Source: Natronospirales bacterium
GTDB lineage: Bacteria > Pseudomonadota > Gammaproteobacteria > Natronospirales > REEB76
Length of the DNA: 64,000 bases
Assembly: GCA_021816765.1 (NCBI GenBank)
Contig: JAKAXB010000001.1
Coordinates: 170,929-234,928 of the forward strand
Direction: 5' to 3'
This document shows, piece by piece, positions 28,416 through 64,000 of this stretch. Each line of letters opens with the position of its first letter. Position 1 is the first letter of the stretch. The notes below the pieces were generated by a model. It had not been told where the DNA came from. It did no database searches and saw only the letters and a program-made list of their open reading frames with translations. A program made the position numbers and the translations under genes.

Positions 28416-28783
28416 GGCGCTTATATGCGTGGTCCTTTCGCGATCTGGTCGCCCATGTTACAAGTTGACGGCAGATACAAAATTATTATGGTGATTACGA
28501 TTGAAACATTATGCAAGGTTGAGAATAAGCCCTTACCACGGTGCCTAGGGTCGGCCATGATTCTATCCAGTATCAGTTTACCGGATGGTAGAGCCATATT
28601 ACCTACAGTCACCCGTTTGACTCTGCTCATGTATCTTGTGGATTTCATTGTTGAGTGCATGCGAACCACGCTCCAGATTGAACGTCAACGTTCAATCGTC
28701 ACGTGCTTGCCGAGCCCGACCCTCAATGCCATGAGCATGTCGCTGTACCGAATCATTTCGGCAGTGATCTATCGGTTCTGGCC

Positions 28784-29836
28784 ATGACCATTGAATACCA
28801 AAATCCGGGTGCCCTGCGGATATGGCTTCCTGCCATTCGTGCCGAGAGTGGCGCAGATATTTTTGTTATGCGTCTTGCCCAGGCATTGCGGCGCGCAGGC
28901 CACGAGCCTCTAGTGCAGTGGTTCGATCATCGGTATGAGCTAATGCCGGAGCTCATGCGCTTTCATCGTAAACCGGAACATATCGATATCATTCATGCTA
29001 ACAGCTGGAACGCATGTGTATTTCTTCGGCAATGCGTTCCTGTAGTGGCGACTGTACATCATCTAGTGCACGATCCGGCCTACGCTCCTTACCGGTCCGT
29101 AGCACAAGCGTTTTATCATCGCTGGCATGTGCGGTGGCGTGAAGCTCGTGCGGTTGAGCAAAGTGCGGCTGTTACGGCGATTTCGAGTTATGTATGTCAG
29201 ACAGTGCGAGAGGTGTTTGGAAGAGAATCGGTGCAGGTCATTAACAACTGGGTTGATACTGATCAATATAGGCCGTCATCAGAATATAAATTACCTGATG
29301 CTCGTCGTTTCCGGCTGCTGATGGTGGGGAACCATAGCCGACGAAAAGGATATGATCTATTGCCTGCATTCGCGCATGCGCTGGGGCCGAGTTTCGATTT
29401 GCGTTGTACTGGCGGGCTTCGGGATAACGATACCACGATGAGCTTGGAAAATTTAAGCATTCTCGGGCACCTATCCGAGCAAGAATTGATTTACGAATAT
29501 ATGCATTGTGATGCCGTGGTATCGCTGTCACGCTACGAGGGATTTGGTTATACGGCGCTGGAAGGCATGGCATGTGGCAAACCGTTCGTGGGGTTTCATA
29601 CCAGCGGCTTAACTGATGTGGTTATTGATGGAGTGACGGGATTCCTTGTGCCCATTAATGATTTAACTGCTTTGGTAGAAAGGTGTGTGCGGCTATCAAA
29701 CAGCCCGTTGATGCCTGAGCGTATGGGGAAGGCTGGAAGAGAGCGGGCATTGAGTGCATTTACCGAGAGAGCGGCAATCGATGCTTACATCGCACTATAT
29801 CGTAAAGTAATTGTGCAATTCCGGAAATCTGAATAG
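28784..29836 (+). CDS. Glycosyltransferase family 4 (GT-B fold)
   Basis: GT4 C-terminal motif YEGFGYTALEGMACGKPFV. Start placed at ATG 28784 (MTIEYQN) rather than 28703. Confidence 0.8.
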   Translation: MTIEYQNPGALRIWLPAIRAESGADIFVMRLAQALRRAGHEPLVQWFDHRYELMPELMRFHRKPEHIDIIHANSWNACVFLRQCVPVVATVHHLVHDPAYAPYRSVAQAFYHRWHVRWREARAVEQSAAVTAISSYVCQTVREVFGRESVQVINNWVDTDQYRPSSEYKLPDARRFRLLMVGNHSRRKGYDLLPAFAHALGPSFDLRCTGGLRDNDTTMSLENLSILGHLSEQELIYEYMHCDAVVSLSRYEGFGYTALEGMACGKPFVGFHTSGLTDVVIDGVTGFLVPINDLTALVERCVRLSNSPLMPERMGKAGRERALSAFTERAAIDAYIALYRKVIVQFRKSE

Positions 29837-29986
29837 GGTCGTGGGACCCGGTGCATGCGGTATGGCCAACAACCATCCAAAGTATTGATGTCAACGATTG
29901 ACTTTCCTGCCCATTACCCTGCACGGCAAAAGGGGGCAGATCTGACAACCCATGGTCAGTCATCAATGTATACATGGATCTAAATC

Positions 29987-31186
29987 ATGAAAAATATTCG
30001 ACTCGCAATTGTGATTCCTACTCGGAATCGTGCCGCACTGGCAGCGCAGTCTGTGGAGTCCGTGTTGACGTCTTACGCGGGCGATGATGTCGGGGTCATA
30101 ATTTCTGATAACTCGACAGATATTTCAGAGTCCGTAATTTTAGATAGGTATTTTTCAAGCGTAGGTTCACGTGTACAGCTGATACGCCCGATGACACCAC
30201 TTGGAATGACAGCTCACTGGAATTTCGCAATTGATTACGCGATGTCAGCGGCGCCCTATACACACTTCACGGTTTTGACAGATAGAATGCTTTTCAAAGT
30301 AAATTGTATTAAACATATTCTAAGCATTCTATCATCATTCCAAAACGATGTGCTTAGCTACACATATGATCGTATCCATGATGCCGATACCTCTTGTCCG
30401 ATAATTTACAGACCTTTACCTCGTTCCGGTGACCTGATTCGGATCGAATCAGAGCGGTTACTTGCGATGTCGGCGCATATGTCGTTTCCATCTTGTTTAC
30501 CACGCATGCTCAATAGCGTGAGCCCTCGGGAACATTTGAATAAATTAAAGATCAGGTTCGCTAAGGTATTCTCATCCATAGCTCCGGATTTTAATTTCTG
30601 TTACCGCACTCTTGATATTTGCAAATCGTTCGTATATTACGATAGAGCAGTATTAATCAATTATTCGCAGGGAAGAAGTAATGGCGCAAGCTTTGCTCGT
30701 GGCGTAATGACAAGGGATAGTGAAGATTTCATGAAGAACCTGGATGGTAACCGTTTGAATGAATGCTCACCTTTGCCAGCGGTTTTAACCGTAGGTAACT
30801 CGATCGTTCATGAATACTGTATCGCAAAGCGATTATCGCACAGCGGAAAATTTCCCGAAATATCAATTGATGCCTATATGGATTTTCTCGCCGCTGAGGT
30901 TCTCCAATTTGAGGATGCGCATGTCACAAGCGAATCACTGCGCCTGTTGCGCAGATATGGCTGGAAACCGCGATTGCAATTTCACCTGGCAAGATGGAAA
31001 AGCAAAATGGTGGAAATAATACTTGATCTTTGTGCTCGTAAGTTCGGTACAGTCAAGGAAGCGGTTTCTTATGCATGCTCTCATACAACACCGGTATGGG
31101 CGTGGTTTCCGCACCCTTCCCGTGGCTACGGATTGAAAATACCGTTTCCTGTGCCGGGAAAGAACAATGGTCACTCGAATTTGTAG
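29987..31186 (+). CDS. Glycosyltransferase family 2 (GT-A fold)
   Basis: N-terminal LAIVIPTRNRAALAAQSVESVL...ISDNSTD pattern, typical of GT2. 399 aa. Low-GC codon usage. Confidence 0.7.
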   Translation: MKNIRLAIVIPTRNRAALAAQSVESVLTSYAGDDVGVIISDNSTDISESVILDRYFSSVGSRVQLIRPMTPLGMTAHWNFAIDYAMSAAPYTHFTVLTDRMLFKVNCIKHILSILSSFQNDVLSYTYDRIHDADTSCPIIYRPLPRSGDLIRIESERLLAMSAHMSFPSCLPRMLNSVSPREHLNKLKIRFAKVFSSIAPDFNFCYRTLDICKSFVYYDRAVLINYSQGRSNGASFARGVMTRDSEDFMKNLDGNRLNECSPLPAVLTVGNSIVHEYCIAKRLSHSGKFPEISIDAYMDFLAAEVLQFEDAHVTSESLRLLRRYGWKPRLQFHLARWKSKMVEIILDLCARKFGTVKEAVSYACSHTTPVWAWFPHPSRGYGLKIPFPVPGKNNGHSNL

Positions 31187-31208
31187 AGGAATCTGCTTAA
31201 GGCCAAGT

Positions 31209-32723
31209 TTAATTTTTAGGCGACATTGCTTGTGTCACTTGTTTCTTTGCCCATGTTCGAATGGATGGTGACATTAGCGCTGCGGCGCTAAGGGTAATGC
31301 CGCTGATCAGGATCAATTGCAAAATGCCTTGCAGGTTTCGCGATATGATTGGGACCATCCACCGCATGAACATACCGACAGCAGTGGCGCCAATGAAAGG
31401 CGGCAGTATATCTTGCAGGTACCATTTGCCCATTTCTCCACGCATGAAGCGGCGATGCATCAATGGAATCGCTATGACAACAAATCCGAGGTTGATTGCG
31501 AGCCACAAGAAGGCAGCACCGATGATGCCGTAGTGACCAACGGCCCATATGCAAAAGGGTATGCCCAGGATCAATGCAACCAGGTTTGTCCCGACGGCGA
31601 GTCGCGTCCAGCCATGCGCCAGTTGCAGTGCATAGGGAAGATTCATCAACCCGTTTAGTGCAGTACCGGCGACCAGGATCGAGAGCGGCACAGCCACCTT
31701 CGCCGCCGTGGCAGCATCGCCAGTCCATAAATAGATAACGTCTTTTGAAAAGACTATCAATACAACCGAAATCGCTGCCAGTACAATGCCAAGATACTGA
31801 TTGCTCAAATGATAAAGGTGTGTCAATGCTTTATTTTCGCCGAGGGACACCAGTCTGCTGTAACGCGGATAAAGTGCATTGAACATGGGTTGGATCATGC
31901 GGCCCATGCCTGCCGCTACGCTGAGTGCCAGGCTGAAGTAACCCAGTTCCACCAGTGGTCGCATGGCCGAGAGCACGATGCGGTCGAGCTGTGTGACTGC
32001 GACCGACAGTGCGGTGATGGCAACCAGTCCGCCCGCGAAGCGGCCCGTGGCTCGAAGTTCTTCCGGGTGGAATCGCGGGCGCTTGTGGGTGCCGGATGGC
32101 AACAAACGCCACAATACAGTGGCGGACACCAGCGATTGGCAAGCTCCCATGGCCGCATACCACCACATGAAAGCCGCGATCGTGGGGGAAACCCAATACA
32201 GCACCGCCAGCACACCGGCACCGCGCAGGGTGGCGAAGCCGGCGTTGATCAGATTCAACACCGGTTGCCGTTCAAGCCCGGAAAGACCGTTGGAATAGAA
32301 ACCGCTGGGCCATTGCAGCGCCACCGCCAATCCCATGATGGCGATGGCATGTGCGGTTTCCCTGCGAGTCAGATGAACCGGATGCAGCCAATGATTCGCC
32401 AATGGACCGCTGGCAAGCCAGATCGCGACGGCTATTGCCAGGGCGGTTGGCCAGATCAGCCATTCAAAGGTACGAACCAGATCGCCAATGGTGCCGACCA
32501 TATCGGTATTGTGAGCGCGGCGCGCCAGCTCCCGATTCAACGCACCACCCATGCCGAGATCAAGCAGCATGGAAAGTGCCTGGATGCTCAGCATCAGCCC
32601 AACCAGACCGAAGGCTTCCATACCCAGCACACGGATGTAGAGCGGCACAAACGCCACGCTCATCAGCACCATCCACACCTGTCCGGCGTAGTTGGCGAGA
32701 ATATTTGTCCGTAACACAGGCAC
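31209..32723 (-). CDS. Wzx-like oligosaccharide flippase (MOP superfamily polysaccharide biosynthesis protein)
   Basis: 504 aa with about 12-14 hydrophobic helices. N-terminus ILANYAGQVW..VPLYIRVLGMEAFGLVG is typical of the Wzx/PST family. Confidence 0.75.
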   Translation of the reverse strand: MPVLRTNILANYAGQVWMVLMSVAFVPLYIRVLGMEAFGLVGLMLSIQALSMLLDLGMGGALNRELARRAHNTDMVGTIGDLVRTFEWLIWPTALAIAVAIWLASGPLANHWLHPVHLTRRETAHAIAIMGLAVALQWPSGFYSNGLSGLERQPVLNLINAGFATLRGAGVLAVLYWVSPTIAAFMWWYAAMGACQSLVSATVLWRLLPSGTHKRPRFHPEELRATGRFAGGLVAITALSVAVTQLDRIVLSAMRPLVELGYFSLALSVAAGMGRMIQPMFNALYPRYSRLVSLGENKALTHLYHLSNQYLGIVLAAISVVLIVFSKDVIYLWTGDAATAAKVAVPLSILVAGTALNGLMNLPYALQLAHGWTRLAVGTNLVALILGIPFCIWAVGHYGIIGAAFLWLAINLGFVVIAIPLMHRRFMRGEMGKWYLQDILPPFIGATAVGMFMRWMVPIISRNLQGILQLILISGITLSAAALMSPSIRTWAKKQVTQAMSPKN

Positions 32724-32734
32724 AGATGTGTGCT

Positions 32735-33538
32735 CTAGACGCGCCGTAAATAGCCGTCGGGAGCGACGGTGATCAGCAATTTGTCTTCAATATTCTTGTC
32801 TATAGTGAAACGAAGCGGCGCACCATCAGCGGATTCTCTGCCCTCATCGCGGAGCCGCCGCAGATACTCGTGCAAGGCAGTTTTTGGATTGTTGCCGGGA
32901 CCCCAATCTCGATCCGGGTAAAAATCGGTGGGTAGATCTTCGATAACCGAGTCGAACACCACACAATAGCTGTCTTGTGAAACCAGGGGCGCGTAGGCCT
33001 CGAGTTCTGCGAGCACGTGTTTATGAGTGTGATTGGAGTCCAGCAATACCAAGACGTGCTCAAAGGCTGATGCGATCCGGGTAACTTGCGCAACGGTATC
33101 CGGTGCAACCGACGAGCCCTGAATCATTTCAATGCGATTCGACAAAGGATGCGCTTCAATCGCCGTACGGTTGTGCGCGCGGATGTCAATATCCACTCCG
33201 AGTACTTTCCGTCGCGGTATCTGTGGGTCAAGCATATTGCCCGTCTCCACAGCATCGTAGTAATCCAATAGCGTTAACAGCGAGGCACTGAGTACCAATG
33301 AACCGCCATGAGCAATGCCGGTTTCGATGATCAGGTCGGGGCGAACGTCCCAGATGATCTCCTGTATGGCAACCATGTCCTGCGGATATTGGATAATTGG
33401 CCTGCCTTGCCAGAAGAAGTTATAGGAGTATTTCGCTCTGTTCGACGAGCGCACGAACGCACGAGTGTCAGATTGGAGCTGCGAATCGTTGCGGAAGCCT
33501 TGGATCCGTTGTTTTGATTCCTCTTGAAAATTGCTCAT
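32735..33538 (-). CDS. CmcI (cephalosporin hydroxylase)-family SAM-dependent O-methyltransferase
   Basis: 267 aa with motifs WQGRPIIQYPQDMVAIQEIIW and IIETGIAHGGS, characteristic of CmcI-like sugar O-methyltransferases. Confidence 0.75.
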   Translation of the reverse strand: MSNFQEESKQRIQGFRNDSQLQSDTRAFVRSSNRAKYSYNFFWQGRPIIQYPQDMVAIQEIIWDVRPDLIIETGIAHGGSLVLSASLLTLLDYYDAVETGNMLDPQIPRRKVLGVDIDIRAHNRTAIEAHPLSNRIEMIQGSSVAPDTVAQVTRIASAFEHVLVLLDSNHTHKHVLAELEAYAPLVSQDSYCVVFDSVIEDLPTDFYPDRDWGPGNNPKTALHEYLRRLRDEGRESADGAPLRFTIDKNIEDKLLITVAPDGYLRRV

Positions 33539-34416
33539 GTTTTGCCTCCTTTGCCCCCTGGAGTGTGGCTGATTTGCGATTCAGCCAATATGGAATTAAG
33601 TTTTTGTCTGCTTCCCCAGAACGCACGTGGTTCGTAATCCGGATATGGATAGACGCCGAATTTGAGACATATCTCAGCGTGCCAGCCATGCAACCACTCT
33701 TGCGCCAGATCAGATATTTTTCGGGGTACACCACTGCAGATATTTACCAGATCCGTATTATGATGGTTCAGCGTGATTTCACAGATTTGCGACGCAGCAA
33801 TTTCAACGGGAAGAAAGTCACGCAACTGGTCGCCTGGTGACATGGCGAATTCCGATCTACCCTCGGTGATTGCGGTGCGCAATTGTGAGTACAGCGACGT
33901 CGGTGCCTGGCCTGAACCATAGAGGTAAAATAATCTGAGCCAAGTGAGCTGCAAGCCGTTGCAAGATTCGAGTTTCTGTAGGTAATGGCGCAATTGATTC
34001 TTGGCGTGGCCGTATGCTGTGCACGGCATCGCAGGTAATTCTTCATGTAGCATACCGGACTGCATTCCGTATTCCAGACATGTGCCTGTGACAACCAAAC
34101 GCTTTATCCCGGACTGTACACAAGACTCGAGGAACACTACTTGTCTGGGAAGCTCGCGATTTAGATGTGTCTCTGATCGATAGTTAGGGAGGCCGTCCCA
34201 AGCCAGGTGCAGCAAGACGTCGGGCTGGCCTAATCGTTCAAAGATGTCTGTTGCATCCCCATCCATATCCAGCGCGGTGTAAGTGATAGCTTCGGTAGGA
34301 GCGAACAACGGATCTGGCGCGCGGGATGCGATGGCAATCTTAACACCGCGCGCAAGCAGCTCGCGAACGACATGGCGGCCAATGAAACCAGTGGCGCCAG
34401 TGACAGCCACTTTCAT
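33535..34416 (-). CDS. NAD(P)-dependent SDR sugar epimerase/ketoreductase
   Basis: N-terminal Rossmann motif VTGATGFIGRHV. 293 aa. 4-nt overlap with the downstream gene. Confidence 0.8.
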   Translation of the reverse strand: MKVAVTGATGFIGRHVVRELLARGVKIAIASRAPDPLFAPTEAITYTALDMDGDATDIFERLGQPDVLLHLAWDGLPNYRSETHLNRELPRQVVFLESCVQSGIKRLVVTGTCLEYGMQSGMLHEELPAMPCTAYGHAKNQLRHYLQKLESCNGLQLTWLRLFYLYGSGQAPTSLYSQLRTAITEGRSEFAMSPGDQLRDFLPVEIAASQICEITLNHHNTDLVNICSGVPRKISDLAQEWLHGWHAEICLKFGVYPYPDYEPRAFWGSRQKLNSILAESQISHTPGGKGGKT

Positions 34417-35640
34417 TTAAATTATTTCCAGTCGCGGAACAAACGTGACGAATTGACCTCCCCATTCCCGAATGTAGCCGAGCTGGGCGACGATTTCCTC
34501 GCGCAGGTTCCACGGCAGGATCAAAACAAAATCAGGCCGGTCTGCTTTGAGTCGGGATTCGCCGACGACGGGAATCCGGGAACCGGGAAGCCAATGACCT
34601 TGTTTATGCGGCGACGCATCCACCACGTAAGGAAGCAGGTCGGGTTTTACTCCGGCGTAGTTTAACAGCGTATTGCCTTTGGCCGCGGCACCGTAGGCGG
34701 CTACTTTGCGCCCAGCCCGGCGTTGCTCCAGGAGAAACTCCAGGCAACCGTTCTTGACTGCATCGGCCTGTGCTTGCAAGTCTTGGTAATAGGCGATGTT
34801 CTGCATGCCCGCCTGAGTTTCCAGGGCCAGCAATGCCGCGACTTCGGGAGTTTGGATGTGTTGGCTGTGTTCATGCGCGGCCCAGATGCGCAGCGAGCCC
34901 CCGTGTGTGGGCAACTGTTCGACATCCCACACCCGCAAACCATGCGCCGTGAAAATTTCTTGCACGGTATGCAATGAAAAATAGGAAAAGTGCTCGTGAT
35001 AGACCGTATCGAATTGGCGCTTCGATACCAGCTCCATCAGGTGTGGAATCTCGACGCTGATCGAGCCTTGCCCGGCGAGAGCGATGGCGAGACCGGCGAC
35101 AAAGTCGTTGAGATCAGGTACGTGCGCCAGTACGTTGTTCGCCACGATCAGATCCGCTGACCGTCGTTTGCGCACGAACTCGCCGGCAAACTCACGGCCG
35201 AAGAAGCGCTCCAGCGTCTCGATACCTTTTCCCCGAGCCACCGCGGCGGTGCCGGCGGTGGGTTCGATACCCACACAGGGAATGCCGCGTGCGGCCACAT
35301 ATTGCAGAAGGTAGCCGTCGTTGGAAGCGATCTCCATCACCAAGCTGTTGTGGTTTAAGCCAAGACGTGCGATGACTTCGGTAACGTAGCGTTCGGCATG
35401 GGCCAGCCATGACCGCGCGAACGAGGAGTAGTAAATGTAATCGGGGGGGAACAGCGCGGTGGGCGGCTGCATCTCGGCCACCTGCACCAAATGACATCCC
35501 CCGCAGGTAAACAATTTCAACGGAAACCAGAGTTCCGGCGCGTTGAGAGTATCTGCCGTCAGGAAAGCATTCGAGGGCGGCGCGCTGCCGAGGTCGAGAA
35601 ATGCATTCTGCAGTGGTGTTCCACAGAAGCGGCACTTCAT
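34417..35640 (-). CDS. NDP-hexose C-methyltransferase (TylCIII-like, SAM-dependent)
   Basis: 407 aa with N-terminal zinc ribbon CRFCGTPL..CGGCHLVQ, followed by a class I methyltransferase core and a C-terminal C-methyltransferase-type domain. Confidence 0.75.
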   Translation of the reverse strand: MKCRFCGTPLQNAFLDLGSAPPSNAFLTADTLNAPELWFPLKLFTCGGCHLVQVAEMQPPTALFPPDYIYYSSFARSWLAHAERYVTEVIARLGLNHNSLVMEIASNDGYLLQYVAARGIPCVGIEPTAGTAAVARGKGIETLERFFGREFAGEFVRKRRSADLIVANNVLAHVPDLNDFVAGLAIALAGQGSISVEIPHLMELVSKRQFDTVYHEHFSYFSLHTVQEIFTAHGLRVWDVEQLPTHGGSLRIWAAHEHSQHIQTPEVAALLALETQAGMQNIAYYQDLQAQADAVKNGCLEFLLEQRRAGRKVAAYGAAAKGNTLLNYAGVKPDLLPYVVDASPHKQGHWLPGSRIPVVGESRLKADRPDFVLILPWNLREEIVAQLGYIREWGGQFVTFVPRLEII

Positions 35641-36188
35641 AATTCAATCCCGGCGAATGCCGCGGTCAACAATGGAAAATCGCGGTCTTTGCCGGAGACC
35701 TGCGTCACCGGCAGTGGCCATGCGATAGCCAGTACGGGATCGTCATGACGAACACCACCTTCGTGCGCACGGCTCCAGGCAGCGGTGTGCAGATACAGCA
35801 ACTGCGCGTCGTCGGTAAGCGTTTGAAACCCGTGTGCAAAACCCTCGGGTATGAAGAGTTGCATTGAATTGTTCTCGCTCAATTCGACGCCGTGCCAGTG
35901 CAGAAAGGTTGGCGAGCCGGCCCGCAGGTCCACGGCGACATCGAAGACCCGGCCTTGCAGGCAACGGATCAACTTGGCCTCGGCCGCTGGCGGAGACTGA
36001 AAGTGCATGCCGCGTATCGTACCTTTGAGGGAGGTGCTGGAAAGATTGATTTGCACCCAATGCAGGTATGGCCGCAGCTCGACGCACTCGGTCTCGCAGA
36101 ACACGCGGATAAAGCTGCCGCGTTGGTCCTGGATTGGCGCGGTCTCGATCAGCATCAAATCCGCCAGCGGAGTGCCGTGGGCTTTCAT
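35637..36188 (-). CDS. NDP-4-keto-6-deoxyhexose 3,5-epimerase (RmlC-like cupin)
   Basis: 183-aa RmlC-type cupin (DQRGSF.., GMHFQ, FIPEGFAHGF). Confidence 0.8.
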   Translation of the reverse strand: MKAHGTPLADLMLIETAPIQDQRGSFIRVFCETECVELRPYLHWVQINLSSTSLKGTIRGMHFQSPPAAEAKLIRCLQGRVFDVAVDLRAGSPTFLHWHGVELSENNSMQLFIPEGFAHGFQTLTDDAQLLYLHTAAWSRAHEGGVRHDDPVLAIAWPLPVTQVSGKDRDFPLLTAAFAGIEL

Positions 36189-56394: not shown

Positions 56395-56556
56395 GGCGGA
56401 ATCAGTCCTGATGTTGGGTGGCGGTCGCATGGGGCGGCAAGTATAACGTAAACAACCACTAAGCGTATGCTGCGCGGCCTATGGAGGTTGCGAGGACCGA
56501 GAAGGTGGTTATTCCCGGCCGCCAGTCCGACTTTCCAGCGATCTTCGCTTGCCTCT

Positions 56557-57000
56557 TTACATCAAGTCAGAGATAGGCAAAGTATAGAAAAAATATACAA
56601 GCGCCATCCCAGGCTTTGGTGGCAAGGCATTAAATTTATCCGCAGCCTTCGTCGTTTGTTTAATAACGATGTTTTGAATCATGTAGGCTGATTTTTGTAT
56701 GACTTGGAAATAGTAAGTCTTGCCTGGTTCTAGGTTAACGGTGGTGGTGATACCGTTGCCCCTATAGGTTCCTGAGTAATTGAACATGCCGGTAAAATCG
56801 TGGCTGCCTGGGTAAAGGTACGCCCAACAGTACCGCCCGTTGTAGAGTGAACATATTCGGGATCCATGCTGGTCACCGCTCAGGACCACGATCTGCGAGG
56901 CGGTACGGATATAACCATGGCTGGTGCGAACTTCATCAGGAGTCGTACACCCTACAAGAAACAAAACTATAAAAAGCGGAATTAGTCTTGTAAATTTCAT
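56557..57000 (-). CDS. Lipoprotein, DUF2846-like
   Basis: Signal peptide with lipobox (LFLVGC). Motifs YPGSHDF, LEPGKTYYFQV and PGMALVYFFY resemble DUF2846. AT-rich gene between bamD and rluD. Confidence 0.6.
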   Translation of the reverse strand: MKFTRLIPLFIVLFLVGCTTPDEVRTSHGYIRTASQIVVLSGDQHGSRICSLYNGRYCWAYLYPGSHDFTGMFNYSGTYRGNGITTTVNLEPGKTYYFQVIQKSAYMIQNIVIKQTTKAADKFNALPPKPGMALVYFFYTLPISDLM

Positions 57001-57156
57001 GGCGACGCCCTTTATCGTAATCAAGCCATGGCGCGCATCTTATCCCATCGGTTTCAATTCGGTAATCCCGCCGGCTATCCACCGGATACAGGACAACTTC
57101 AGGAAATTTGTTTGGTTTTGCGGATATAACGTAAACTGCAGTTATCCTTGCAGATT

Positions 57157-58137
57157 ATGGCGCTTATGAACCGACGTGCGGTCAAAGAATGCCTGATCCC
57201 CGTTGAGCTGGCCGGACAGCGTTTCGACCAGGCGCTGGCGCGGCTGTTTCCGGAATATTCACGCAGCCGTCTGACCCAGTGGATACGCGAGGGTCGTGTG
57301 CTTTTGGACGAGCGCGCGCCGCGGCCGCGGGATTCCGTGATGGCGGGCCAGCGGGTGCGCCTGACGCTGGTGGAGGAGGCGCTTACGGAACTGCTGCCCG
57401 AGCATTTGCCCCTGGACATCGTGTTCGAGGATGCGGCCCTCATCATCGTCAACAAAGCGGCGGGCCTGGTGGTGCATCCCGGCGCCGGCAACCCGGCCGG
57501 CACGCTGCAAAACGCACTGCTGGCCTACGCGCCGGAACTGGTGCAGGTGCCGCGTTGCGGCTTGGTGCACCGGCTCGACAAGGATACGTCCGGGCTGCTG
57601 GCGGTGGCGCGCACCCTGGAAGCCCATACCCAACTGGTGGCGGCGCTGGCGGCGCGCCAGTTCGAGCGCGAGTACGAGGCACTGGTGAACGGCGTCATGA
57701 CCGGCGGCGGCACCGTGGACGCGCCCATCGCGCGCCACGGCGTGGACCGGGTGCGCATGAGCGTGCGCGAAGGCGGCCGGCCAGCGGTAACCCATTATCG
57801 CGTCATCCAGCGCTTCCGCGCTCACACCCATGTATCCGTGAAACTGGAGACCGGCCGCACCCATCAGATTCGTGTGCATCTTGCCCATATCCATCATCCG
57901 CTGGTGGGCGATCCGGTCTACGGCCGGCGACTTGCGATGCCTGCCGGCGCCACTCTCACGCTGACAGAAGCGTTGCGCGGCTTCAAACGCCAGGCGCTGC
58001 ACGCGCGCCGGCTTGGTCTTGCGCATCCCATCAGCGGCGAATTCATGCGCTGGGAAGCCCCGCTGCCGCAGGACATGCAGCAACTGCTTCACGCCCTCGA
58101 CATGGATCTGCGGCGGCATCCGGTACATGCGCGCTGA
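57157..58137 (+). CDS. rluD: 23S rRNA pseudouridine(1911/1915/1917) synthase RluD
   Basis: S4 domain (AGQRFDQALARLFPEYSRSRLTQWI) plus RluA-family catalytic motif HRLDKDTSGLL. ATG 57157 is preferred over TTG 57148. Confidence 0.92.
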   Translation: MALMNRRAVKECLIPVELAGQRFDQALARLFPEYSRSRLTQWIREGRVLLDERAPRPRDSVMAGQRVRLTLVEEALTELLPEHLPLDIVFEDAALIIVNKAAGLVVHPGAGNPAGTLQNALLAYAPELVQVPRCGLVHRLDKDTSGLLAVARTLEAHTQLVAALAARQFEREYEALVNGVMTGGGTVDAPIARHGVDRVRMSVREGGRPAVTHYRVIQRFRAHTHVSVKLETGRTHQIRVHLAHIHHPLVGDPVYGRRLAMPAGATLTLTEALRGFKRQALHARRLGLAHPISGEFMRWEAPLPQDMQQLLHALDMDLRRHPVHAR

Positions 58138-58864
58138 CTGGATCACGCCGGACTGGCCCGCGTTGCCGCGCGTGCGCGCCGTGGCCACCACGCGCAGCGG
58201 TGGGGTGAGCGCGGGCGTGTATGCGTCGCTGAACCTGGGCCGGCATGTGGGGGATGCGCCGGACCATGTCGCTGAAAACCGCCGGCGATTGAGCGCAGCG
58301 CTGGATCTGCACCGGGAGCCTCGCTGGCTCAGGCAGGTGCATGGTTCCCGGATCGCTGATCTGAACGGGGATGGCATCACCGGGCCGGCCGATGGCGCCG
58401 TGACACGATCTCCGGGGGAGGTCTGCGCCATCATGACGGCCGACTGCATGCCGGTATTGTTCTGTGACCGTGCCGGCACGACAGTCGCGGCCGCCCATGC
58501 GGGCTGGCGCGGTCTTGTAGCCGGCGTATTGGAGGCAACGGCAACCGCGATGCAGGTGCCGCCGCAAGAAATTCTTGCCTGGCTCGGTCCCGCCATCGGC
58601 GCCGATGTGTACGAGGTGGGCGATGAGGTACGTACGGCGCTGGTCAGGGAACACGCGGATGCGGAGCAGGCCTTTGCACCGGCGCATCCGGGCAAATGGC
58701 TGTGCGATTTGTACCAGCTCGCCAGCCAGCGGCTGCGGCGAGCGGGCATCGGCCGCATCTATGGTGGCGGGTTTTGTACGTATACGGACAAGGACAGGTT
58801 TTTTTCGTACCGGCGCGACGGCGAATGCGGGCGCATGGCGACGTTGATCTGGCTTGCAGGCTGA
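58127..58864 (+). CDS. pgeF: Peptidoglycan editing factor PgeF (YfiH, polyphenol oxidase/laccase-domain family)
   Basis: 245 aa with YfiH motifs (TTRSGGVS..YASLNLG, TADCMPVL, HAGWRG). Overlaps the rluD end. rluD-yfiH synteny. Confidence 0.88.
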   Translation: MRADWITPDWPALPRVRAVATTRSGGVSAGVYASLNLGRHVGDAPDHVAENRRRLSAALDLHREPRWLRQVHGSRIADLNGDGITGPADGAVTRSPGEVCAIMTADCMPVLFCDRAGTTVAAAHAGWRGLVAGVLEATATAMQVPPQEILAWLGPAIGADVYEVGDEVRTALVREHADAEQAFAPAHPGKWLCDLYQLASQRLRRAGIGRIYGGGFCTYTDKDRFFSYRRDGECGRMATLIWLAG

Positions 58865-58920
58865 TTTGGACTCCTTATCTCTCTTCGGGAGAAGGCGGGG
58901 ATGAGAGGGAATTATTTTGA

Positions 58921-59376
58921 TGCGGCTTCGCCGCAGGAATTGATGCCGGTTCCGTCGCTTCCGGCATCCTGCCTCCCGCGACACTTGTACATCCATGTAC
59001 ATCGCGCACCGGCGAGCGGGTCCATTTTCTTGTTACGCGACAAGAAAATGGACGAAAAGAAGCGCGCCCCGATGAGTCCGTGCTTGCTTGCGCACAGAAT
59101 CGTCCCTGATTGGCTGACCAGGGCGGACATCCCTGTCCGCCCGCTCGTCGCGGTGCGACGAGCCCTCGCTGCTCGCGTCCTCGGGGCAGCCCTCACGGGG
59201 CATCCATGCCCCGGTCGGGCTGGCTCGCCATCCCTGGTTTCGCCCGCGCACTGCGTGCGCGGCAACACCCTGCGGGCGCTGCGCCGCTCAGCGGACTCAA
59301 TGGGGTTACCAAGAGCGTCTTCAAGCCTCGCTGGTTTCGGCGAAGGCTTCACGCCGCACAGGCTGAGGCTCGATGC
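58921..59376. repeat. Hairpin-rich modular repeat, copy L (inverted partner at 61401-61934)
   Basis: Contains a 68-bp core (58946-59013) whose reverse complement is identical to 61673-61740. Palindromes: GTACATCCATGTAC (58987-59000), a 13-bp-stem hairpin (59020-59053), GGCGGACATCCCTGTCCGCC (59122-59141), GGGGCATCCATGCCCC (59197-59212) and CCGCGCAC-TGC-GTGCGCGG (59244-59262). Confidence 0.9.
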
Positions 59377-59396
59377 CGGTCGTTTCAGCCCTGTCA

Positions 59397-59792
59397 TCAC
59401 ACAGGCAGCGCCGATGATCTGAGTATCGGGGCGCCCTCGGTGTAATACGATATATATAGTCGGTCGGCACAGCTATTTTGCGCATACCCGCCAACACTGC
59501 CCGGATGATTGTTCCATGCAAATCGTGCGCGCAGTATTATTCCGGGCATTGCAGATTTCATTTCATAAGGTATGGATGTATAAATATTTTTACAGTCATC
59601 CCCAGGCAGCCAGGGTGTAATAATTAGGACGGGTTGCCAGAATCCGCCTTGTTCGTTGACCATTTTCGACAGCGCGGGGTCAGTCTGTGGGTTGCATCGT
59701 TCATTGATTTCGCGGCTAACTAAGAACGCCATTAAAGTTTCGCCAAGTTGCGCTTGAACGTTATCAAGTAGGTCGTTAATTGAATGACCCAT
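59397..59792 (-). CDS. Hypothetical protein, 131 aa, no recognisable family
   Basis: ATG-started ORF in low-GC DNA, divergent from the CoiA-like gene across a 115-bp spacer. Native-looking composition, but I recognise no motif. Confidence 0.45.
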   Translation of the reverse strand: MGHSINDLLDNVQAQLGETLMAFLVSREINERCNPQTDPALSKMVNEQGGFWQPVLIITPWLPGDDCKNIYTSIPYEMKSAMPGIILRARFAWNNHPGSVGGYAQNSCADRLYISYYTEGAPILRSSALPV

Positions 59793-59907
59793 AACAGGTA
59801 CCGCGATAGTAGAATTGAGTCAAGTATACATAATCGCAGATGTTTATAACCGAACTCCCAGGGTTGAACCGCTAGCGCGCTGCAAAGGGATTGCGTGGAC
59901 GGAATGA

Positions 59908-61068
59908 ATGACTGAAGGAATTAAATACCGATTTGCAAAGAACAATAGCGATGAGCCCGTGGATGTGCAATCGCTAGATCCTGGTTCCATAGTGCGCGGG
60001 CCATTTACTTGCTATGGTTGTAATCAAGAATTAATCGCTCATCTTGGTGCACAGCGAGCGCATCATTTTCAACATAAAGAGAATATCTCTACTTGTGCCC
60101 GCGAAAGCTATCTACACAAACTAGCAAAGTCTGTTTTTACTCAAGAATTCATATCACGAATAAGCGCGAGAACGCCATTTATCATGGAGCTGCATGTCCC
60201 TGGCACATGCACACATTTCGAAGATAGCCTCCACTTCTCTTGCTCGTACAGCGAAGTTCAACGACACGATCTGACACGGTGGTTTGACAACTGCACGATA
60301 GAGGCTGGATATAAAGGTTTTGTGGCTGATGTCTTGTTGTCATCTTCGAAGCGTGAAGATGTGTTGTTCGTGGAATTTTCAGTCACGCATGACTGCGAGC
60401 CCGAAAAGATCGCGAGTGGCATCCGTATTCTTGAAATTCCAATTCGCGACGAAGACGATGTTGCAGCGCTAAGGGGTGATCTGTTAGTAAGCGGCACCCA
60501 TTCAGCACGCCGCGCATATAACCTCAAAGTGCGATCCAAGCGCGCTCCTATGTGCAAGGGCGAATGCCCAAACGAAGTTGGCTTGTTCATAGTGTATAAG
60601 AACGGCAAGGCATTCCTTAAACCAATATCGCCCAAAGCCGCTGTCAATCCCAAGCTACGCGGCGAGATTGCTCATTATAAAATCATTCCACCCGGTGTTC
60701 GATGGGATGACGGATCTTCTCTTGTGCAGATCACTGAGATACCAAAGAGGTATGACGATGCGGATCCATCCGATCCCGCAACGGTTTTTGAACGGCGCTC
60801 CGTGGAGGCGCACTTCAACGGAGTAGCAATACGATCTTGCTTTGTGTGCCGCTTTCATGGGGCTGACGGAATTAATGCTGCAGTGTTTTGCAAGAAGCAT
60901 CGTGAATCCTGTTCTGCGAATACTGCGGCGGATTGCCGCGACTATGCTCCTGTACGCTCTAAAAATGAGTATCAAACACTCAAGGCCAGGAATGCTCGTT
61001 GGGCAGAGGAACATGGGATAGAAGCCGCGTTTAGACAAATTGTGAAACGGAACATTCCGTTAACATAG
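59908..61068 (+). CDS. CoiA-like protein: N-terminal zinc finger + PD-(D/E)xK-type nuclease core + Cys-rich C-terminal domain
   Basis: 386 aa. The CoiA N-terminal pattern FTCYGCNQEL..(10)..HHFQH is followed by ESYLHKLAK and the nuclease-like GFVADVLL...VLFVEFSVTH. The C-terminal half has CKGEC and CFVCRFHG..FCKKHRESCSANTAADC clusters. Low GC. Confidence 0.65.
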   Translation: MTEGIKYRFAKNNSDEPVDVQSLDPGSIVRGPFTCYGCNQELIAHLGAQRAHHFQHKENISTCARESYLHKLAKSVFTQEFISRISARTPFIMELHVPGTCTHFEDSLHFSCSYSEVQRHDLTRWFDNCTIEAGYKGFVADVLLSSSKREDVLFVEFSVTHDCEPEKIASGIRILEIPIRDEDDVAALRGDLLVSGTHSARRAYNLKVRSKRAPMCKGECPNEVGLFIVYKNGKAFLKPISPKAAVNPKLRGEIAHYKIIPPGVRWDDGSSLVQITEIPKRYDDADPSDPATVFERRSVEAHFNGVAIRSCFVCRFHGADGINAAVFCKKHRESCSANTAADCRDYAPVRSKNEYQTLKARNARWAEEHGIEAAFRQIVKRNIPLT

Positions 61069-61400
61069 GAAGTCACCCCAAGATGGAGAATATGTTGGAG
61101 AGCTAACAAGCACATGCAACGGATGCGCCACTTTGCCACGCCGCTGATGTGCAGCGTTGCATGCATAAGGTTCGTTATTACTTTGCTGAGCCTGATGAGA
61201 AGGGATTTTAGCTCAGGACTTTACCGACTCTTAATACAGGTTTGGTTGCAGTGGCATGGCGTATTCTGCTATTTCAATATGATGCGGTGGGTTACGGTTT
61301 CGCTAATCCGCCCTGCGTTTCATAGCATCAAACAAAGCCGATTGCTTGGATTATCCCTTCACCTATGCGGTGGCAGGGCTGAAAAACCGGAATAGCACGT

Positions 61401-61934
61401 CAGCCAGTGCGGCGTGTGGCCTTCACTGAAAACCACAAAGCCCGGTAGCGCTCTTGGAAACCCCCGTCGGAGCGTGCCGTAGCGCTGCTGCGAGCAAGGC
61501 TGGCCCGAAGGGGCGAAGCCAGGGATGGCGAGCTCGCGCGAAGGGCCACGGATGGCCCGTGAGCGCGACCCCGCAGCGCAGCAAGGCGCGAGGGAAGCCG
61601 CGAAGCGGCCGCGCGACCGGGGCGATTTCCTTTGGATACTTTCCTTGTTCGCACAAGGAAAGTATCACGCTTGCCGGTGCGCGATGTACATGGATGTACA
61701 AGTGTCGCGGGAGGCAGGATGCCGGAAGCGACGGAACCGGTACAAATCACGCGGCCGAAGGGCACACAAAATATGGGAGTCAAGTATATAACTCCCTTTC
61801 TTTTCGTCCATTTTCTTGTCGCGCAACAAGAAAATGGACTCGTCGCAGGGGCGAGCCGCACTGCGATGAGCGCCCGGCTAAAAATCGCCGGGCTGGAACG
61901 CGAAAGCCCCGTCAATTCCCGCGGCGAAGCCGCT
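61401..61934. repeat. Hairpin-rich modular repeat, copy R (inverted relative to copy L, with rearranged modules)
   Basis: The 68-bp core at 61673-61740 is the exact reverse complement of 58946-59013. 13-bp-stem hairpins at 61635-61666 and 61806-61839, plus GGGCCACGGATGGCCC (61543-61558). Both outer ends share CGGCTTCGCCGC..GGAATTGA. Both inner ends share GGGGTTWCCAAGAGCG and ACGCCGCAC.GGCTGA. Confidence 0.9.
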
Positions 61935-61942
61935 AACAACAT

Positions 61943-63886
61943 TCAAGTAATCTGTTCCATCTGCTCATGCAATTCCAACCAACGTTCTTCAATTTCCGCA
62001 AGCCGTCCATTTACTTGCGCCCGCTCCCGCAAACTCCCGGTCAATAGCGCCTTGTTCTTGTCTTTATAAGTCGCCGGGTCGGCCAGCACGGCTTCCAGCC
62101 GGGCCTTTTCTGCGCTGAGCCGTTCCAGTTCCTGGTCGAGACGGGTCAACTCGTTTTGCAGCGGCTTGCGTTGCTGTGCAAGCCGCTGGCGTTGTGCTGC
62201 CTCGGCGCGCCGCTCTTGCTTGCGGTTGACGGCGGGGGTGGCCTCACCCCTGCCGTCGGCGGCCGCTGTTTTCTCCTCCGCCAGTGCCGCCGCGCGTTTG
62301 GCGGCGGCCTGGGCGAGCAGCCAGTCGCGATATTCCTCCAGGTCGCCGTCGAAGGCCTGCAGCCCGCCGTGGGCCACCAGCAGGAACTGCTCGGTGGTGG
62401 CGCGCAGCAGAAAACGGTCGTGGGATACCAATATAAGGGTGCCTTCGAATTCCGCCAGCGCCAGGGTCAGGGCATGGCGCGTCTCCAGATCCAGATTGTT
62501 GGTGGGTTCGTCCAGCAGCAGCAGATTGGGCTGTTGCCAGATGATGAGCGCCAGCGCGAGGCGTGCCTTTTCGCCGCCGGAGAACGGCCCTACGGGAGCC
62601 CTGGTCATGTCACCGCGGAAATGGAACGAACCCAGGTAATCCCTCAGCTCCTGCTCACGCGTATCGGGCGCGAGGCGCAACAAGTGTTGCAGCGGCGAAG
62701 TCTCCGCGTGCAGCATCTCCAGTTGATGCTGGGCAAAGTAGCCGATGCGCAATCCCTTGCCGCGCCGTACCTCACCCGCGAGCGGCTCAAGCGTGCCGGC
62801 CAGGGTCTTTACCAGGGTGGATTTTCCCTGGCCGTTGGCGCCGAGAAGGCCGATACGCTGGCCGTCCTGGATAGACAGGCTCACGCCGGTCAGCACGCTG
62901 CGTTCGCCATGTTGTGTGTGATAGCCGCAATTCACATCCTCCAGCACCAGCATGGGGTTGGGCACGGATAGCGGCGCAAGGAAACTGAAGCTGAACGCCG
63001 AGGCCGCGTGCACCGGCGCGACGCGTTCCAGTTTCTCCAGCGTCTTGATACGGCTCTGAGCCTGACGTGCCTTGGTGGCTTTGTACCGGAACCGGTCGAT
63101 GTAACTCTGCAGATGGCCGATGTGTTTCTGCTGTTTCTCAAATGTCGCCTGCTGCAGCGCGAGCTGTGCGGCGCGCTGCATCTCGAACTGGCTGTAGTTG
63201 CCGTTGTAACGCTGCAGTTTGCCAGCATGGATGTGCAGCGTGACATCGCAGACAGCGTCCAGGAACTCGCGGTCGTGGGAAACAACCACGAGCGTGCCGG
63301 GGTAACGTTGCAGCCAGGTTTCCAGCCACACGATAGCGTCCAGATCCAGATGATTGGTGGGTTCGTCCAGCAGCAATAAATCGGAAGGGCACATGAGCGC
63401 CTGCGCAAGGCTCAGGCGCATGCGCCAGCCGCCGGAGAAACTGACTACCGGCTGGCGGGTTTGCCCCAGCGTGAAACCGAGTCCCAGCAGCAGCGCCTCC
63501 GCCCGCGCTGGAGCCGTGTAGCCGTCCGCGTCGGCAAAGGCGGTATGCGCTTCGGCTTCGGCGTGGCCGTCATGAACTGTCCGGGCGGCGGCGATGCGCG
63601 CCTCGATGGCGCGCAATCGGGTGTCGCCGTCCAGTACGTAATCGAGGGCCGTACGTTGCACACCCGGCATGTCCTGCATCACATAGGCGATGCGCCACGA
63701 CGGCGGCAGCGAGACGTCGCCGCCGTCGGCGTGCAGTTCACCGCGCAGCAAGGCGAACAGCGTGGACTTGCCCGCGCCGTTGGCACCCACCAGGCCGGCC
63801 TTTTCACCGGAGTTGAGTACGGCACTGGCCTGTTCGAACAGTACCCTGGTGCCGCGTTGCAGTGAGAGAGACTGGATGCGTATCAA
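61943..63886 (-). CDS. yheS: ABC-F family ATPase (YheS-like, two ABC domains plus C-terminal coiled coil)
   Basis: Collinear with E. coli YheS as I recall it (IRIQSLSLQRG..GLVGANGAGKSTLF.., FSGGWRMRL.., second GLLGANGQGKSTL, FSGGEKARL). TTG 63886 is the proposed start. The ORF remains open to the window end, so the true start could lie further upstream. Confidence 0.85.
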   Translation of the reverse strand: MIRIQSLSLQRGTRVLFEQASAVLNSGEKAGLVGANGAGKSTLFALLRGELHADGGDVSLPPSWRIAYVMQDMPGVQRTALDYVLDGDTRLRAIEARIAAARTVHDGHAEAEAHTAFADADGYTAPARAEALLLGLGFTLGQTRQPVVSFSGGWRMRLSLAQALMCPSDLLLLDEPTNHLDLDAIVWLETWLQRYPGTLVVVSHDREFLDAVCDVTLHIHAGKLQRYNGNYSQFEMQRAAQLALQQATFEKQQKHIGHLQSYIDRFRYKATKARQAQSRIKTLEKLERVAPVHAASAFSFSFLAPLSVPNPMLVLEDVNCGYHTQHGERSVLTGVSLSIQDGQRIGLLGANGQGKSTLVKTLAGTLEPLAGEVRRGKGLRIGYFAQHQLEMLHAETSPLQHLLRLAPDTREQELRDYLGSFHFRGDMTRAPVGPFSGGEKARLALALIIWQQPNLLLLDEPTNNLDLETRHALTLALAEFEGTLILVSHDRFLLRATTEQFLLVAHGGLQAFDGDLEEYRDWLLAQAAAKRAAALAEEKTAAADGRGEATPAVNRKQERRAEAAQRQRLAQQRKPLQNELTRLDQELERLSAEKARLEAVLADPATYKDKNKALLTGSLRERAQVNGRLAEIEERWLELHEQMEQIT

Positions 63887-64000
63887 ATGCCATTCGACCT
63901 TGCAGCTTTCTCCGGCGACGGCCACCGGGGCGCAGGATTGTACGCTGCTCCGCCCGCCGCCGGTATCCGCCGGACCAGGCAACAGCGCTTGAGTCTGCAA

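Follow-up and report, generated by a model that had tools for sequence, protein, structure and literature searches.

A family of hairpin-rich intergenic repeats at a variable cassette site of uncultured Gammaproteobacteria

Results and discussion

Between the gene for the peptidoglycan editing factor PgeF and a gene for an ABC-F ATPase, a 64-kb stretch of DNA from a Natronospirales bacterium (contig JAKAXB010000001.1, hereafter the window) carries a 3-kb block in which two hairpin-rich repeat units, L and R, enclose a low-GC cargo segment. L and R were found to be members of a dispersed, modular and non-coding repeat family in metagenome-assembled genomes (MAGs) of uncultured Gammaproteobacteria, and this family is undescribed. 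With moderate confidence, we read it as a REP/BIME/REPIN-like family that occurs here at a variable site for cassettes, of the kind termed 'minimal mobile element', and not as part of an autonomous or composite transposon. The block would then consist of two separate things, a foreign low-GC cargo and two repeat units.

Members and distribution of the repeat family

The family was collected by a back-translated search of GTDB genomes, a 22-mer search of metagenomes and an nhmmer profile built from the finds. In the GTDB genomes, relatives were recovered at unrelated loci of two other Gammaproteobacteria MAGs, one (locus L011) comprising the core module plus an inverted body and the other (L012) one unit lying upstream of an hslU-like gene, as judged by eye. 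L, R, L011 and L012 all contain the 22-mer CTCGCCRTCCCTGGYTTCGCCC, which was present in 19 metagenome contigs, with several per assembly. Related copies of the repeat are thus found at other loci and in other genomes. Some of these are solo units (L012, L014, L019, L021 and the third unit of L025), and others form inverted doublets arranged tail to tail with 10–60 nt between the tails (L017, L023, L025, L027 and L029). L and R share the geometry of a doublet, but their tails are 2.1 kb apart. All units are intergenic; their heads adjoin gene 3′ ends in about 11 of 15–16 units, as read by eye, and lie 0–10 nt past stop codons at several loci.

The copies are considerably diverged. L and R are about 80% identical over the unit, and each is 87–89% identical to the L012 unit of another MAG. 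Units in one genome (JADEYI / Ga0307374), which is represented by fragments only, are 75–92% identical. The family is also mosaic, with inverted or rearranged modules in L011 and L017 and a swapped head in a second haplotype of the present locus (haplotype B). A coding origin of the repeats was considered and rejected, since the four long open reading frames (ORFs) in L and R had no Pfam match and indels between the copies break the frames. No match to L or to the L029 doublet was found in a plasmid collection. Viral contigs gave a single 22-mer match, which lies in a GC-rich coding region and is attributed to chance, and no match to the core pattern. A literature search returned nothing relevant on the 22-mer or on intergenic repeats with GGA loops.

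Several 22-mer matches (L013, L016/L026, L020 and L022) were not accompanied by a full unit and may represent a short variant or chance. In L013 (190–380), L022 (1190–1400) and L016/L026, the 22-mer sits in much shorter structures that are closed by long perfect inverted repeats (28 bp in L022) on very GC-rich contigs; these structures may belong to the family as a short variant or may have converged on it independently. In addition, ordinary short REP-type hairpins, such as GTCATTCCCGCGCAGTCGGGAATCC, CTGAGCGTAGGCGCCTAGCGCC and GTAGGGTGCGTTTGCGCACC, were observed beside the large units (L019: 3790–3890; L028: 1480–1560; downstream of the unit in L018/L021), which indicates that these genomes carry several repeat families.

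Architecture and conserved structure of the unit

A typical unit measures about 270 nt and comprises hairpins at the head, a palindrome of 14 bp, a linker rich in purines and a body that a long-range helix closes. Two of its body loops invariably read AUCC(N)U on one strand, here called the AUCC strand, and A(N)GGAU on the other, the GGA strand. On the AUCC strand, the head begins with an optional hairpin H0 of the GCGGC-TTC-GCCGC type, followed by a short AT-rich spacer and then by hairpin H1 (GGGGnTTCGnCCCC) or, alternatively, by the 'core' module. These are followed by the palindrome H2, whose two arms contain a T-run and an A-run, respectively, and by the purine-rich linker GAAAAGAAA. The body of about 200 nt is closed by helix P1 and contains a variable hairpin, helix P4 enclosing hairpin P5, the 22-mer with its small hairpin, and hairpin P6. 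A tail motif, GGGGT..AAGAG, completes the unit.

The proposed helices are maintained by compensatory changes. More specifically, five of the nine pairs of P4 are kept through two-sided changes, each in 4–8 of the 17 units (RNAalifold). Paired cells amounted to 94.1%, compared with 76.1% in shuffles (0 of 500 reached the observed value) and 34–49% when the partners were slid, and cells changed on both sides numbered 43 against 13.6 in shuffles. The sequence of P1 differs among units, and in 12 of 16 units the duplex with the unit's own partner strand is favoured by more than 5 kcal/mol over the mean of the non-cognate duplexes. H2 likewise occurs in several mutually compensated versions. In 17 of 17 units, UCC (GGA on the opposite strand) is found both in the P5 loop and in the loop at the position of the 22-mer, even when the surrounding stem has been exchanged for another; loops on the GGA strand include GGGCC-ACGGAU-GGCCC, GGCAC-AGGGAU-GUGCC and GUAC-AUGGAU-GUAC.

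L folds far better than its shuffled versions on both strands (z of −7.3 and −5.5). When the strands were compared across units, the summed minimum free energies were −1747 and −1798 kcal/mol, and G–U pairs numbered 93 against 64. The block gave no Rfam match at E up to 1 over positions 58700–62100, and no match at the gathering threshold was obtained for the window together with five unit-bearing loci. The initial annotation, which had called the repeats a structured element of a type it could not assign, was therefore fair in this respect: the stems covary and match no Rfam family.

The two copies in the window

Unit L occupies positions 58888–59405 with its AUCC strand on the + strand and its head beside pgeF, as delimited by alignment to R; the nhmmer profile matched it at 58998–59317 (E 3.8e-43). 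Its modules are, in order, an AT-rich lead-in, H0, the core module, the H2 palindrome, the purine linker, the P1-closed body and an 85-nt tail extension. H0 (58922–58934, +; GCGGC-TTC-GCCGC) has equivalents at the unit heads in L011, L012, L014, L019, L021 and L025. The core module (58946–59013, +; 68 nt) contains the hairpins GGCATCCTGCC and GTACATCCATGTAC and is 92–93% identical in L011, with a related module in L017. H2 (59020–59053, +) has a 14-bp stem, GTCCATTTTCTTGT / ACAAGAAAATGGAC, and leads into the linker GAAAAGAA; its stem sequence varies, yet remains self-complementary, in the inner palindrome of R, in haplotype B and at other loci. The 5′ strand of P1, CCCCGATGAGTCCG (59067–59080, +), pairs with its 3′ strand, CGGACTCAATGGGG (59292–59305, +), which is followed by the tail motif GGGGTTACCAAGAG. 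This P1 duplex has an energy of −30.3 kcal/mol, against a mean of −22.3 kcal/mol with the 3′ strands of other units. Within the body, an extra hairpin, GGGCGGAC-ATCCCT-GTCCGCCC (59121–59142, +), is found only in L and appears as an insertion in the unit alignment. The P5 hairpin, CGGGGC-ATCCAT-GCCCCG (59196–59213, +), lies inside P4; both helices show compensatory changes, and the P5 loop keeps TCC/GGA in every unit aligned. The conserved 22-mer, CTCGCCATCCCTGGTTTCGCCC (59224–59245, +), contains the hairpin GCCA-TCCC-TGGC and has exact or one-mismatch copies in L011–L031. The 85-nt tail extension (59320–59405, +) is common to L, R and, in part, L011, and the homology between L and R stops at its end.

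Unit R lies in the opposite orientation (61362–61796, AUCC strand on the − strand; nhmmer match 61450–61688, E 1.9e-44), with its tail toward the cargo. Read on the − strand, it consists of a terminator-like hairpin (61796–61775) followed by a T-run, then H0′, the core, H2′, the linker, the P1-closed body and the tail extension. Its core module (61673–61740, −) is the partner of the one in L. The palindrome H2′, GATACTTTCCTTGT / ACAAGGAAAGTATC (61635–61666), is at the same position as the sole palindrome of L; the two stems differ at five positions, and all five differences are compensated. The P5 hairpin of R (61543–61558, −) reads GGGCC-ACGGAT-GGCCC on the + strand, and the 22-mer (61511–61532, −) is an exact copy of the consensus. 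Beyond R, an extra, head-only partial unit (61797–61934, −) stands beside the ABC-F stop codon. It comprises an H0 (61921–61933), GC hairpins and an H2 palindrome (61806–61839), and was matched in part by the profile (61798–61859, model positions 8–68).

Most of what the initial annotation had reported of the two copies was reproduced. L and R are inverted relative to each other, with arms (58913–59033 and 61653–61773) that are 82% complementary over 121 nt. Their outer ends are homologous, as claimed (58922–58954 and 61901–61933, 82% complementary), and so are their inner ends (59302–59380 and 61386–61464, 72% complementary). An alignment and a string check both confirmed that 58946–59013 is the exact reverse complement of 61673–61740 over 68 of 68 positions; a 32-nt part of this core occurs at these two places only in the window, against none expected by chance. 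The palindromes, described earlier as having 13-bp stems, are present in both copies with 14-bp stems (59020–59053 and 61806–61839), and the palindrome half-site occurs four times in the window against 0.25 expected. The difference in module order between L and R holds as well. As for the limits assigned to the copies, the homology stood and the extent did not: the copies are longer, L running over 58888–59405 and R over 61362–61796 plus the head-only piece to 61934. No further unit was found within the window; the 15-nt match at 24655 falls within a gene and is attributed to chance.

The pgeF–ABC-F junction is a recurrent variable site

The left boundary of the block is formed by pgeF (58127–58864, +; Pfam Cu-oxidase_4, E 2.5e-80), which was called as a gene in L001 and whose homologues are named PgeF. 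The right boundary is the ABC-F ATPase gene (61943–64000, −; ABC_tran, ABC_tran_Xtn and ABC_tran_CTD), which runs off the window. The two genes are convergent, and the 3-kb block between them is an insertion relative to related genomes. The GC content is 0.43–0.52 across 59300–61400 compared with 0.64–0.70 in the flanks, and the low-GC cargo segment itself spans 59406–61361 (GC 0.43–0.52).

Relatives of the locus were collected through pgeF homologues. In four related lineages, pgeF and the ABC-F gene are only 19–44 bp apart, which demonstrates that empty sites exist. Specifically, 42 nt separate the two stop codons in L043/L044 (where pgeF is 80% identical), 19 nt in L047/L048, and 44 nt in both L050/L051 and L052–L054; no counterpart of the cargo segment is present at the empty sites L043, L047, L050 and L052. 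The earlier proposal that AT-rich DNA had been inserted between pgeF and ABC-F was borne out by the dip in GC content, the identities of the genes and these empty relatives.

The site holds other genes in other lineages. L019 (the same locus as L055), whose flanks are 93% identical to those of the empty L043, has the order pgeF, IS630 element, low-GC gene for a 348-aa RNase_T fusion protein, a single repeat unit whose head faces ABC-F, a pair of small REP hairpins and ABC-F. In L045/L046, the same exonuclease gene, with 73% nucleotide identity to that of L019, directly follows pgeF, and neither a unit nor an ABC-F gene is present. According to lineage, the junction is therefore empty, occupied by the CoiA-like gene of the window (see below) or occupied by an unrelated exonuclease-fusion gene, and constitutes a recurrent variable site.

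The 348-aa protein is conserved between L019 (2351–3397) and L045 (5806–6850) and consists of a Cys/His-rich N-terminal domain fused to a DEDD (RNase_T) exonuclease; it recurs downstream of pgeF as a low-GC single-gene cassette in two lineages. Beside it in L019 (1130–2290), directly after pgeF, we observed an IS630-family element (HTH_32/HTH_29 N-terminal part) whose frame is apparently disrupted.

The cargo

The cargo segment encodes a CoiA-family-like protein of 386 aa (59908–61068, +), the 3′ end of its gene facing the tail of R. Its match to Pfam CoiA_N (PF25164; E 8.8e-6, 25.6 bits) falls just below the cut-off of 26.3 bits, and its homologues carry PF25164. A search of 5.8 billion proteins yielded no more than 13 homologues, of which two are named CoiA family. 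The predicted layout is a CxxC...H zinc finger at the N terminus, a PD-(D/E)xK-like core in the middle and a Cys-rich domain at the C terminus. Invariant residues in the alignment include C35, C38, H56, C63, E66, H70, K74, E132, D141, E156 and K167, plus C-terminal cysteines; E132, D141, E156 and K167 form an acidic/lysine set. An AlphaFold (AF2) model was of moderate quality (pLDDT 77); a Foldseek comparison with the PDB gave non-significant matches (E ≥ 0.08), several of the top ones being PD-(D/E)xK nucleases (SfsA, a restriction-endonuclease-like domain protein and HincII). Searches of PADLOC and PHROGs returned nothing for this protein, and NCBIfam gave a chance-level match only (E 0.046). 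It resembles the CoiA family in its putative N-terminal zinc finger (CoiA_N), in its candidate central acidic/lysine motif of the PD-(D/E)xK type and in that some homologues are named CoiA by NCBI, and differs from it in the sub-threshold Pfam score, the extra C-terminal Cys-rich domain and the very small size of its own family (13 matches).

The nearest homologues outside the species are 65% and 33% identical and stand in other contexts (L032 and L033), without repeat units. Their neighbours, a protein kinase and an EMARD_N-domain protein, are not competence-like, so that an accessory gene fits the context better. Judging from these sequence features, the cargo would be a foreign, orphan gene for a predicted CoiA-family nuclease-like protein. 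The exact protein was recovered on 24 contigs from several MAGs and assemblies of one species, always between pgeF and ABC-F.

A second ORF of 131 aa (59397–59792, −) has its 3′ end facing the tail of L and was called as a gene in L009 and L010. It had no match in Pfam, PADLOC, NCBIfam or PHROGs, and may not be a real gene. The cargo further contains an imperfect REP-like hairpin, GCGGTGGGTTACGGTTTCGCTAATCCGCCCTGCG (61262–61300). Window position 61265 is the exact end of two independent assemblies (L008 and L010), suggesting further copies of this short repeat in other parts of the genome.

Haplotypes and the 68-bp identity

The perfect 68-bp inverted core is confined to one haplotype. In haplotype B (L002, L004 and L006), the left unit has a different head of 133 nt and the core is absent from L, leaving a single copy in R. 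This alternative head (L002: 8997–9129; also in L004 and L006) replaces window positions 58856–59036. It contains a canonical H1–H2, with a third compensated version of H2, and a dRS3-like hairpin, GTCGGCGAAAGCCGGCATCCAGT, in place of the core. Since the core is perfect in one haplotype only, the 68/68 identity is best read as gene conversion; from the sequences compared, R would recently have converted a short tract of L in the haplotype of the window. Inversion through the 68-bp repeat was also considered, and no contig with a recombinant junction was found. Between the haplotypes the cassette shows no differences over 2.5 kb, which may reflect a recent sweep, but divergence in the flanks is low and patchy.

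Comparison with known repeat and cassette systems

BIMEs are grouped with REP sequences as extragenic palindromic repeats. The present units are likewise extragenic and palindromic, are mostly found at the 3′ ends of genes and in the gaps between convergent ones, form mosaics with other motifs, and have copies that diverge and persist within lineages. They also share an arrangement with REPINs, which are inverted REP doublets mobilised by RAYT transposases (PMC3116915, PMC3337134), in that L017, L023, L025, L027 and L029 are inverted doublets with a short spacer. In contrast to REP sequences of 20–40 nt, the unit measures about 270 nt (440–520 nt here) and has several hairpins in a domain closed by a long-range helix. 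Moreover, the units have no GTAG-type head, and two loop sequences and the 22-mer are conserved across genomes, unlike in REP and REPIN. Ordinary REP hairpins with a GTAG head coexist beside the units in L018/L021 and L019.

In the Neisseria NIME/dRS3 system, repeat blocks with short inverted repeats at their boundaries make up modular intergenic mosaics. Our units resemble NIME/dRS3 and Correia elements in being modular mosaics associated with variable regions and recombination, and dRS3-like hairpins (GTCATTCCCGCG..GGGAATCC) adjoin units in L019, L028, L011 and haplotype B. The sequences, the host group and the structure of the unit are different. Correia elements, in addition, have defined 26-bp terminal repeats and TA duplications (PMC2649163), neither of which was seen in the units.

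The minimal mobile element (Saunders and Snyder 2002; as defined in PMC3082526) consists of conserved flanking genes between which differing whole-gene cassettes are placed by homologous recombination in the flanks. The present locus fits this description in that pgeF and ABC-F flank different whole-gene cassettes, or nothing, according to lineage, and the cassette itself is free of mobility genes. The concept was developed for strains of naturally transformable Neisseria, whereas lineages compared here are MAGs at the species level. A further difference is that structured repeats accompany the cassette here, and homologous recombination would be the presumed route.

Interpretation and alternatives

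We therefore favour a REP/BIME/REPIN-like family at a minimal-mobile-element-type site. The variable-site pattern is observed directly, and the cassettes would be exchanged by homologous recombination in the conserved flanks. The units, for their part, may act on transcripts as 3′-end hairpin arrays, in termination, in protection from exonucleases and in the insulation of convergent transcription; in the present block, one unit stands between each chromosomal gene and the cargo gene convergent with it. Their spread or reshuffling would proceed via recombination or an enzyme encoded elsewhere. One unit head, in L011 (5395–5440), carries a textbook bidirectional terminator, AAAAAGCGGCTGTCTCCAGCCGCTTTTT, in place of the H2 palindrome, a hint that head modules serve in termination.

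Several observations weigh against this interpretation. The invariance of two loops in 17 of 17 units, and the identity of the 22-mer among units that are only 72–90% alike, are not explained by a simple role as terminator or stabiliser. As both strands fold about equally well, the folding data provide neither the acting strand nor a choice between RNA and DNA. Promoters, terminators and GacA boxes were scanned for, and no signal exceeded chance where one would be expected; no U-tract terminators or promoters stand out. The family also seems rare in databases, as searches with the spurious ORFs of the units retrieved only 4–5 related proteins among billions. Lastly, unit(s) and cargo co-occur at the junction in two independent lineages and are both gone from the empty relatives. 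This co-occurrence, together with the L014 unit tail that adjoins low-GC DNA, hints that units and cargo are genuinely linked, which a block of two separate things would not explain.

Such a link is central to the first alternative, in which the units are recombination substrates that capture foreign genes, either by providing portable homology between lineages, as NIME/dRS3 in Neisseria, or through breakage at the palindromic centre of a doublet that then takes up DNA. Both routes would leave cassettes lying between unit tails. Low-GC foreign genes adjoin unit tails in three independent cases, namely in this window (on both sides), in L019 (the RNase_T fusion) and in L014 (an AAA_14/DUF4143 ATPase), and in all three the 3′ end of the cargo gene points toward the tail, more consistently than chance would suggest. 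Between lineages, unit sequences are at least as conserved (88–93% for some modules) as the flanking genes (78–84%), and modules have been exchanged among copies and haplotypes. However, L045 has the same exonuclease cassette as L019 at the same site without any unit, the unit of L019 is on one side only, the other low-GC island of the window (the polysaccharide cluster at 27–35 kb) has no units, and the sample is small. We consider capture by the units unlikely, if worth keeping in view.

The invariant loops are addressed by a second alternative, in which the units are CsrA/RsmA-binding RNA modules that act as decoys (sponges) or as CsrA-recruiting elements in untranslated regions (UTRs); this could hold alongside the reading that we prefer. 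The high-affinity CsrA/RsmE site is described by the consensus RUACARGGAUGU from systematic evolution of ligands by exponential enrichment (SELEX), by the hcnA loop ACGGAU and by the CsrB repeat CAGGAUG. The A(N)GGAU loops of the units, set on GC stems and closed by a C–G pair, match such a site. All five hairpins of the window, counted on both strands, that have a stem of at least 4 bp and the sequence C-A(N)GGAT-G lie in L or R. GGA is retained in both body loops of 17 of 17 units, also where the stem has been replaced, as in L017b (GGGGCA-AGGGAU-UGCCCC); its density is 3.0 per 100 nt on the GGA strand against 1.24 on the other, and on the GGA strand a U-rich tract, UUCUUUUC, follows the body-closing helix. 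The two diverging cargo ORFs have the same sense as the GGA strand of the unit that each of them faces (L or R), so that the sites would fall in their 3′ UTRs.

The units resemble the CsrB, CsrC, RsmX, RsmY and RsmZ sponges in possessing several GC-stem hairpins with A(N)GGAU loops, and differ from them in lacking an Rfam match, a GacA-type promoter and a clear terminator. No CsrB, CsrC, RsmX, RsmY, RsmZ or other Rfam match was obtained at E up to 1, and promoter-like and GacA-box signals were not above chance. Known Csr/Rsm sponge RNAs have about twice the GGA density of the units. Again unlike the sponges, the units are dispersed, multi-copy, placed in either orientation to genes and found as inverted doublets. 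Most of their heads point toward gene 3′ ends, so that read-through transcripts would carry the complementary AUCC strand. One frequent G–U pair (9 of 17 units, columns 172/212) is on the AUCC strand, the identity of the 22-mer across genomes is atypical for sponge RNAs, and no csrA was found in the approximately 450 kb of sequence examined. Overall, we regard a role in CsrA/RsmA binding as rather improbable. Its stronger form, in which the units would be mobile or dispersing transcribed CsrA/RsmA-binding modules that are copied like REPINs and bring neighbouring genes, acquired nuclease cassettes among them, under Csr/Rsm control, is more doubtful still.

A third alternative treats the whole block as a mobile element, with L and R as long structured terminal inverted repeats, the CoiA-like nuclease as its past or present mobility enzyme and the cargo-free doublets as deletion derivatives resembling miniature inverted-repeat transposable elements (MITEs). 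Doublets elsewhere are indeed arranged tail to tail like L and R (10–60 nt between the tails, compared with 2.1 kb here), relatives have empty sites from which units and cargo are both missing, and the cargo protein is predicted to be nuclease-like with zinc fingers. Against this, no target-site duplication was found: neither candidate pair of outer boundaries has a direct repeat of at least 6 nt in common. In place of conserved terminal repeats, the units end in hairpins that vary. L and R, at 80% identity, are not each other's closest relatives, and the 75–92% identity among units within one genome argues against a recent burst. In addition, the 13 homologues of the cargo protein among 5.8 billion proteins include nearest ones (L032 and L033) with no units around them, the other cargos adjoining units are unrelated (the RNase_T fusion and the AAA_14/DUF4143 ATPase), and the cargo occurs in a single genomic context. 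We judge this alternative to be highly improbable.

The suggestion of the initial annotation that the block is a composite or MITE-bounded mobile cassette was not supported, there being no transposase ORF, no target-site duplication, one context only, about 80% identity between L and R and a core that is specific to one haplotype. For a composite transposon or a cassette bounded by insertion sequences, none of the four long ORFs in L and R matches Pfam, indels break their frames, and no second genomic site was found (24 contigs, one context); for a MITE, the ends of units and doublets are hairpins that vary in sequence between copies and not conserved terminal inverted repeats.

Other features of the window

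A low-GC island (0.44–0.58) at 27000–35700 was identified as a polysaccharide or O-antigen-type cluster with no repeat units at its flanks; its genes encode glycosyltransferases, a Polysacc_synt flippase, a CmcI-type methyltransferase, an epimerase and a C-methyltransferase. Between bamD and rluD lies a low-GC, lipoprotein-like ORF of 155 aa (56557–57024, −) with a weak match to DUF2846, which is also present in L043. The bamD–rluD gap measures only 75–87 nt in the relatives L045 and L052, which makes this ORF another lineage-specific single-gene insertion. Differences between the haplotypes are also concentrated at 56500–57500. No tRNA or tmRNA was found in the window, and no integron integrase among the genes called within 10 kb on either side (pilS, sucCD, nadE, bamD, rluD, pgeF, ABC-F, clpB and others), an attC consensus not having been scanned for.

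Conclusions

The repeats described here add a large and well-structured family to the bacterial intergenic repeats known so far (REP/BIME, REPIN, Correia, NIME and ERIC). The evidence for compensatory change is unusually clear, and the two invariant loop sequences point to a specific binding partner. At a practical level, the 68-bp inverted repeat and the REP-like hairpin break short-read assemblies at this locus. The junction of pgeF and ABC-F is a single-gene hot spot that has repeatedly held different nuclease-type accessory genes, and is useful for finding defence-like genes in uncultured Gammaproteobacteria. Should the binding partner of the units prove to be CsrA/RsmA, dispersed repeats of this kind would represent a new way of wiring genes into the Csr/Rsm network.

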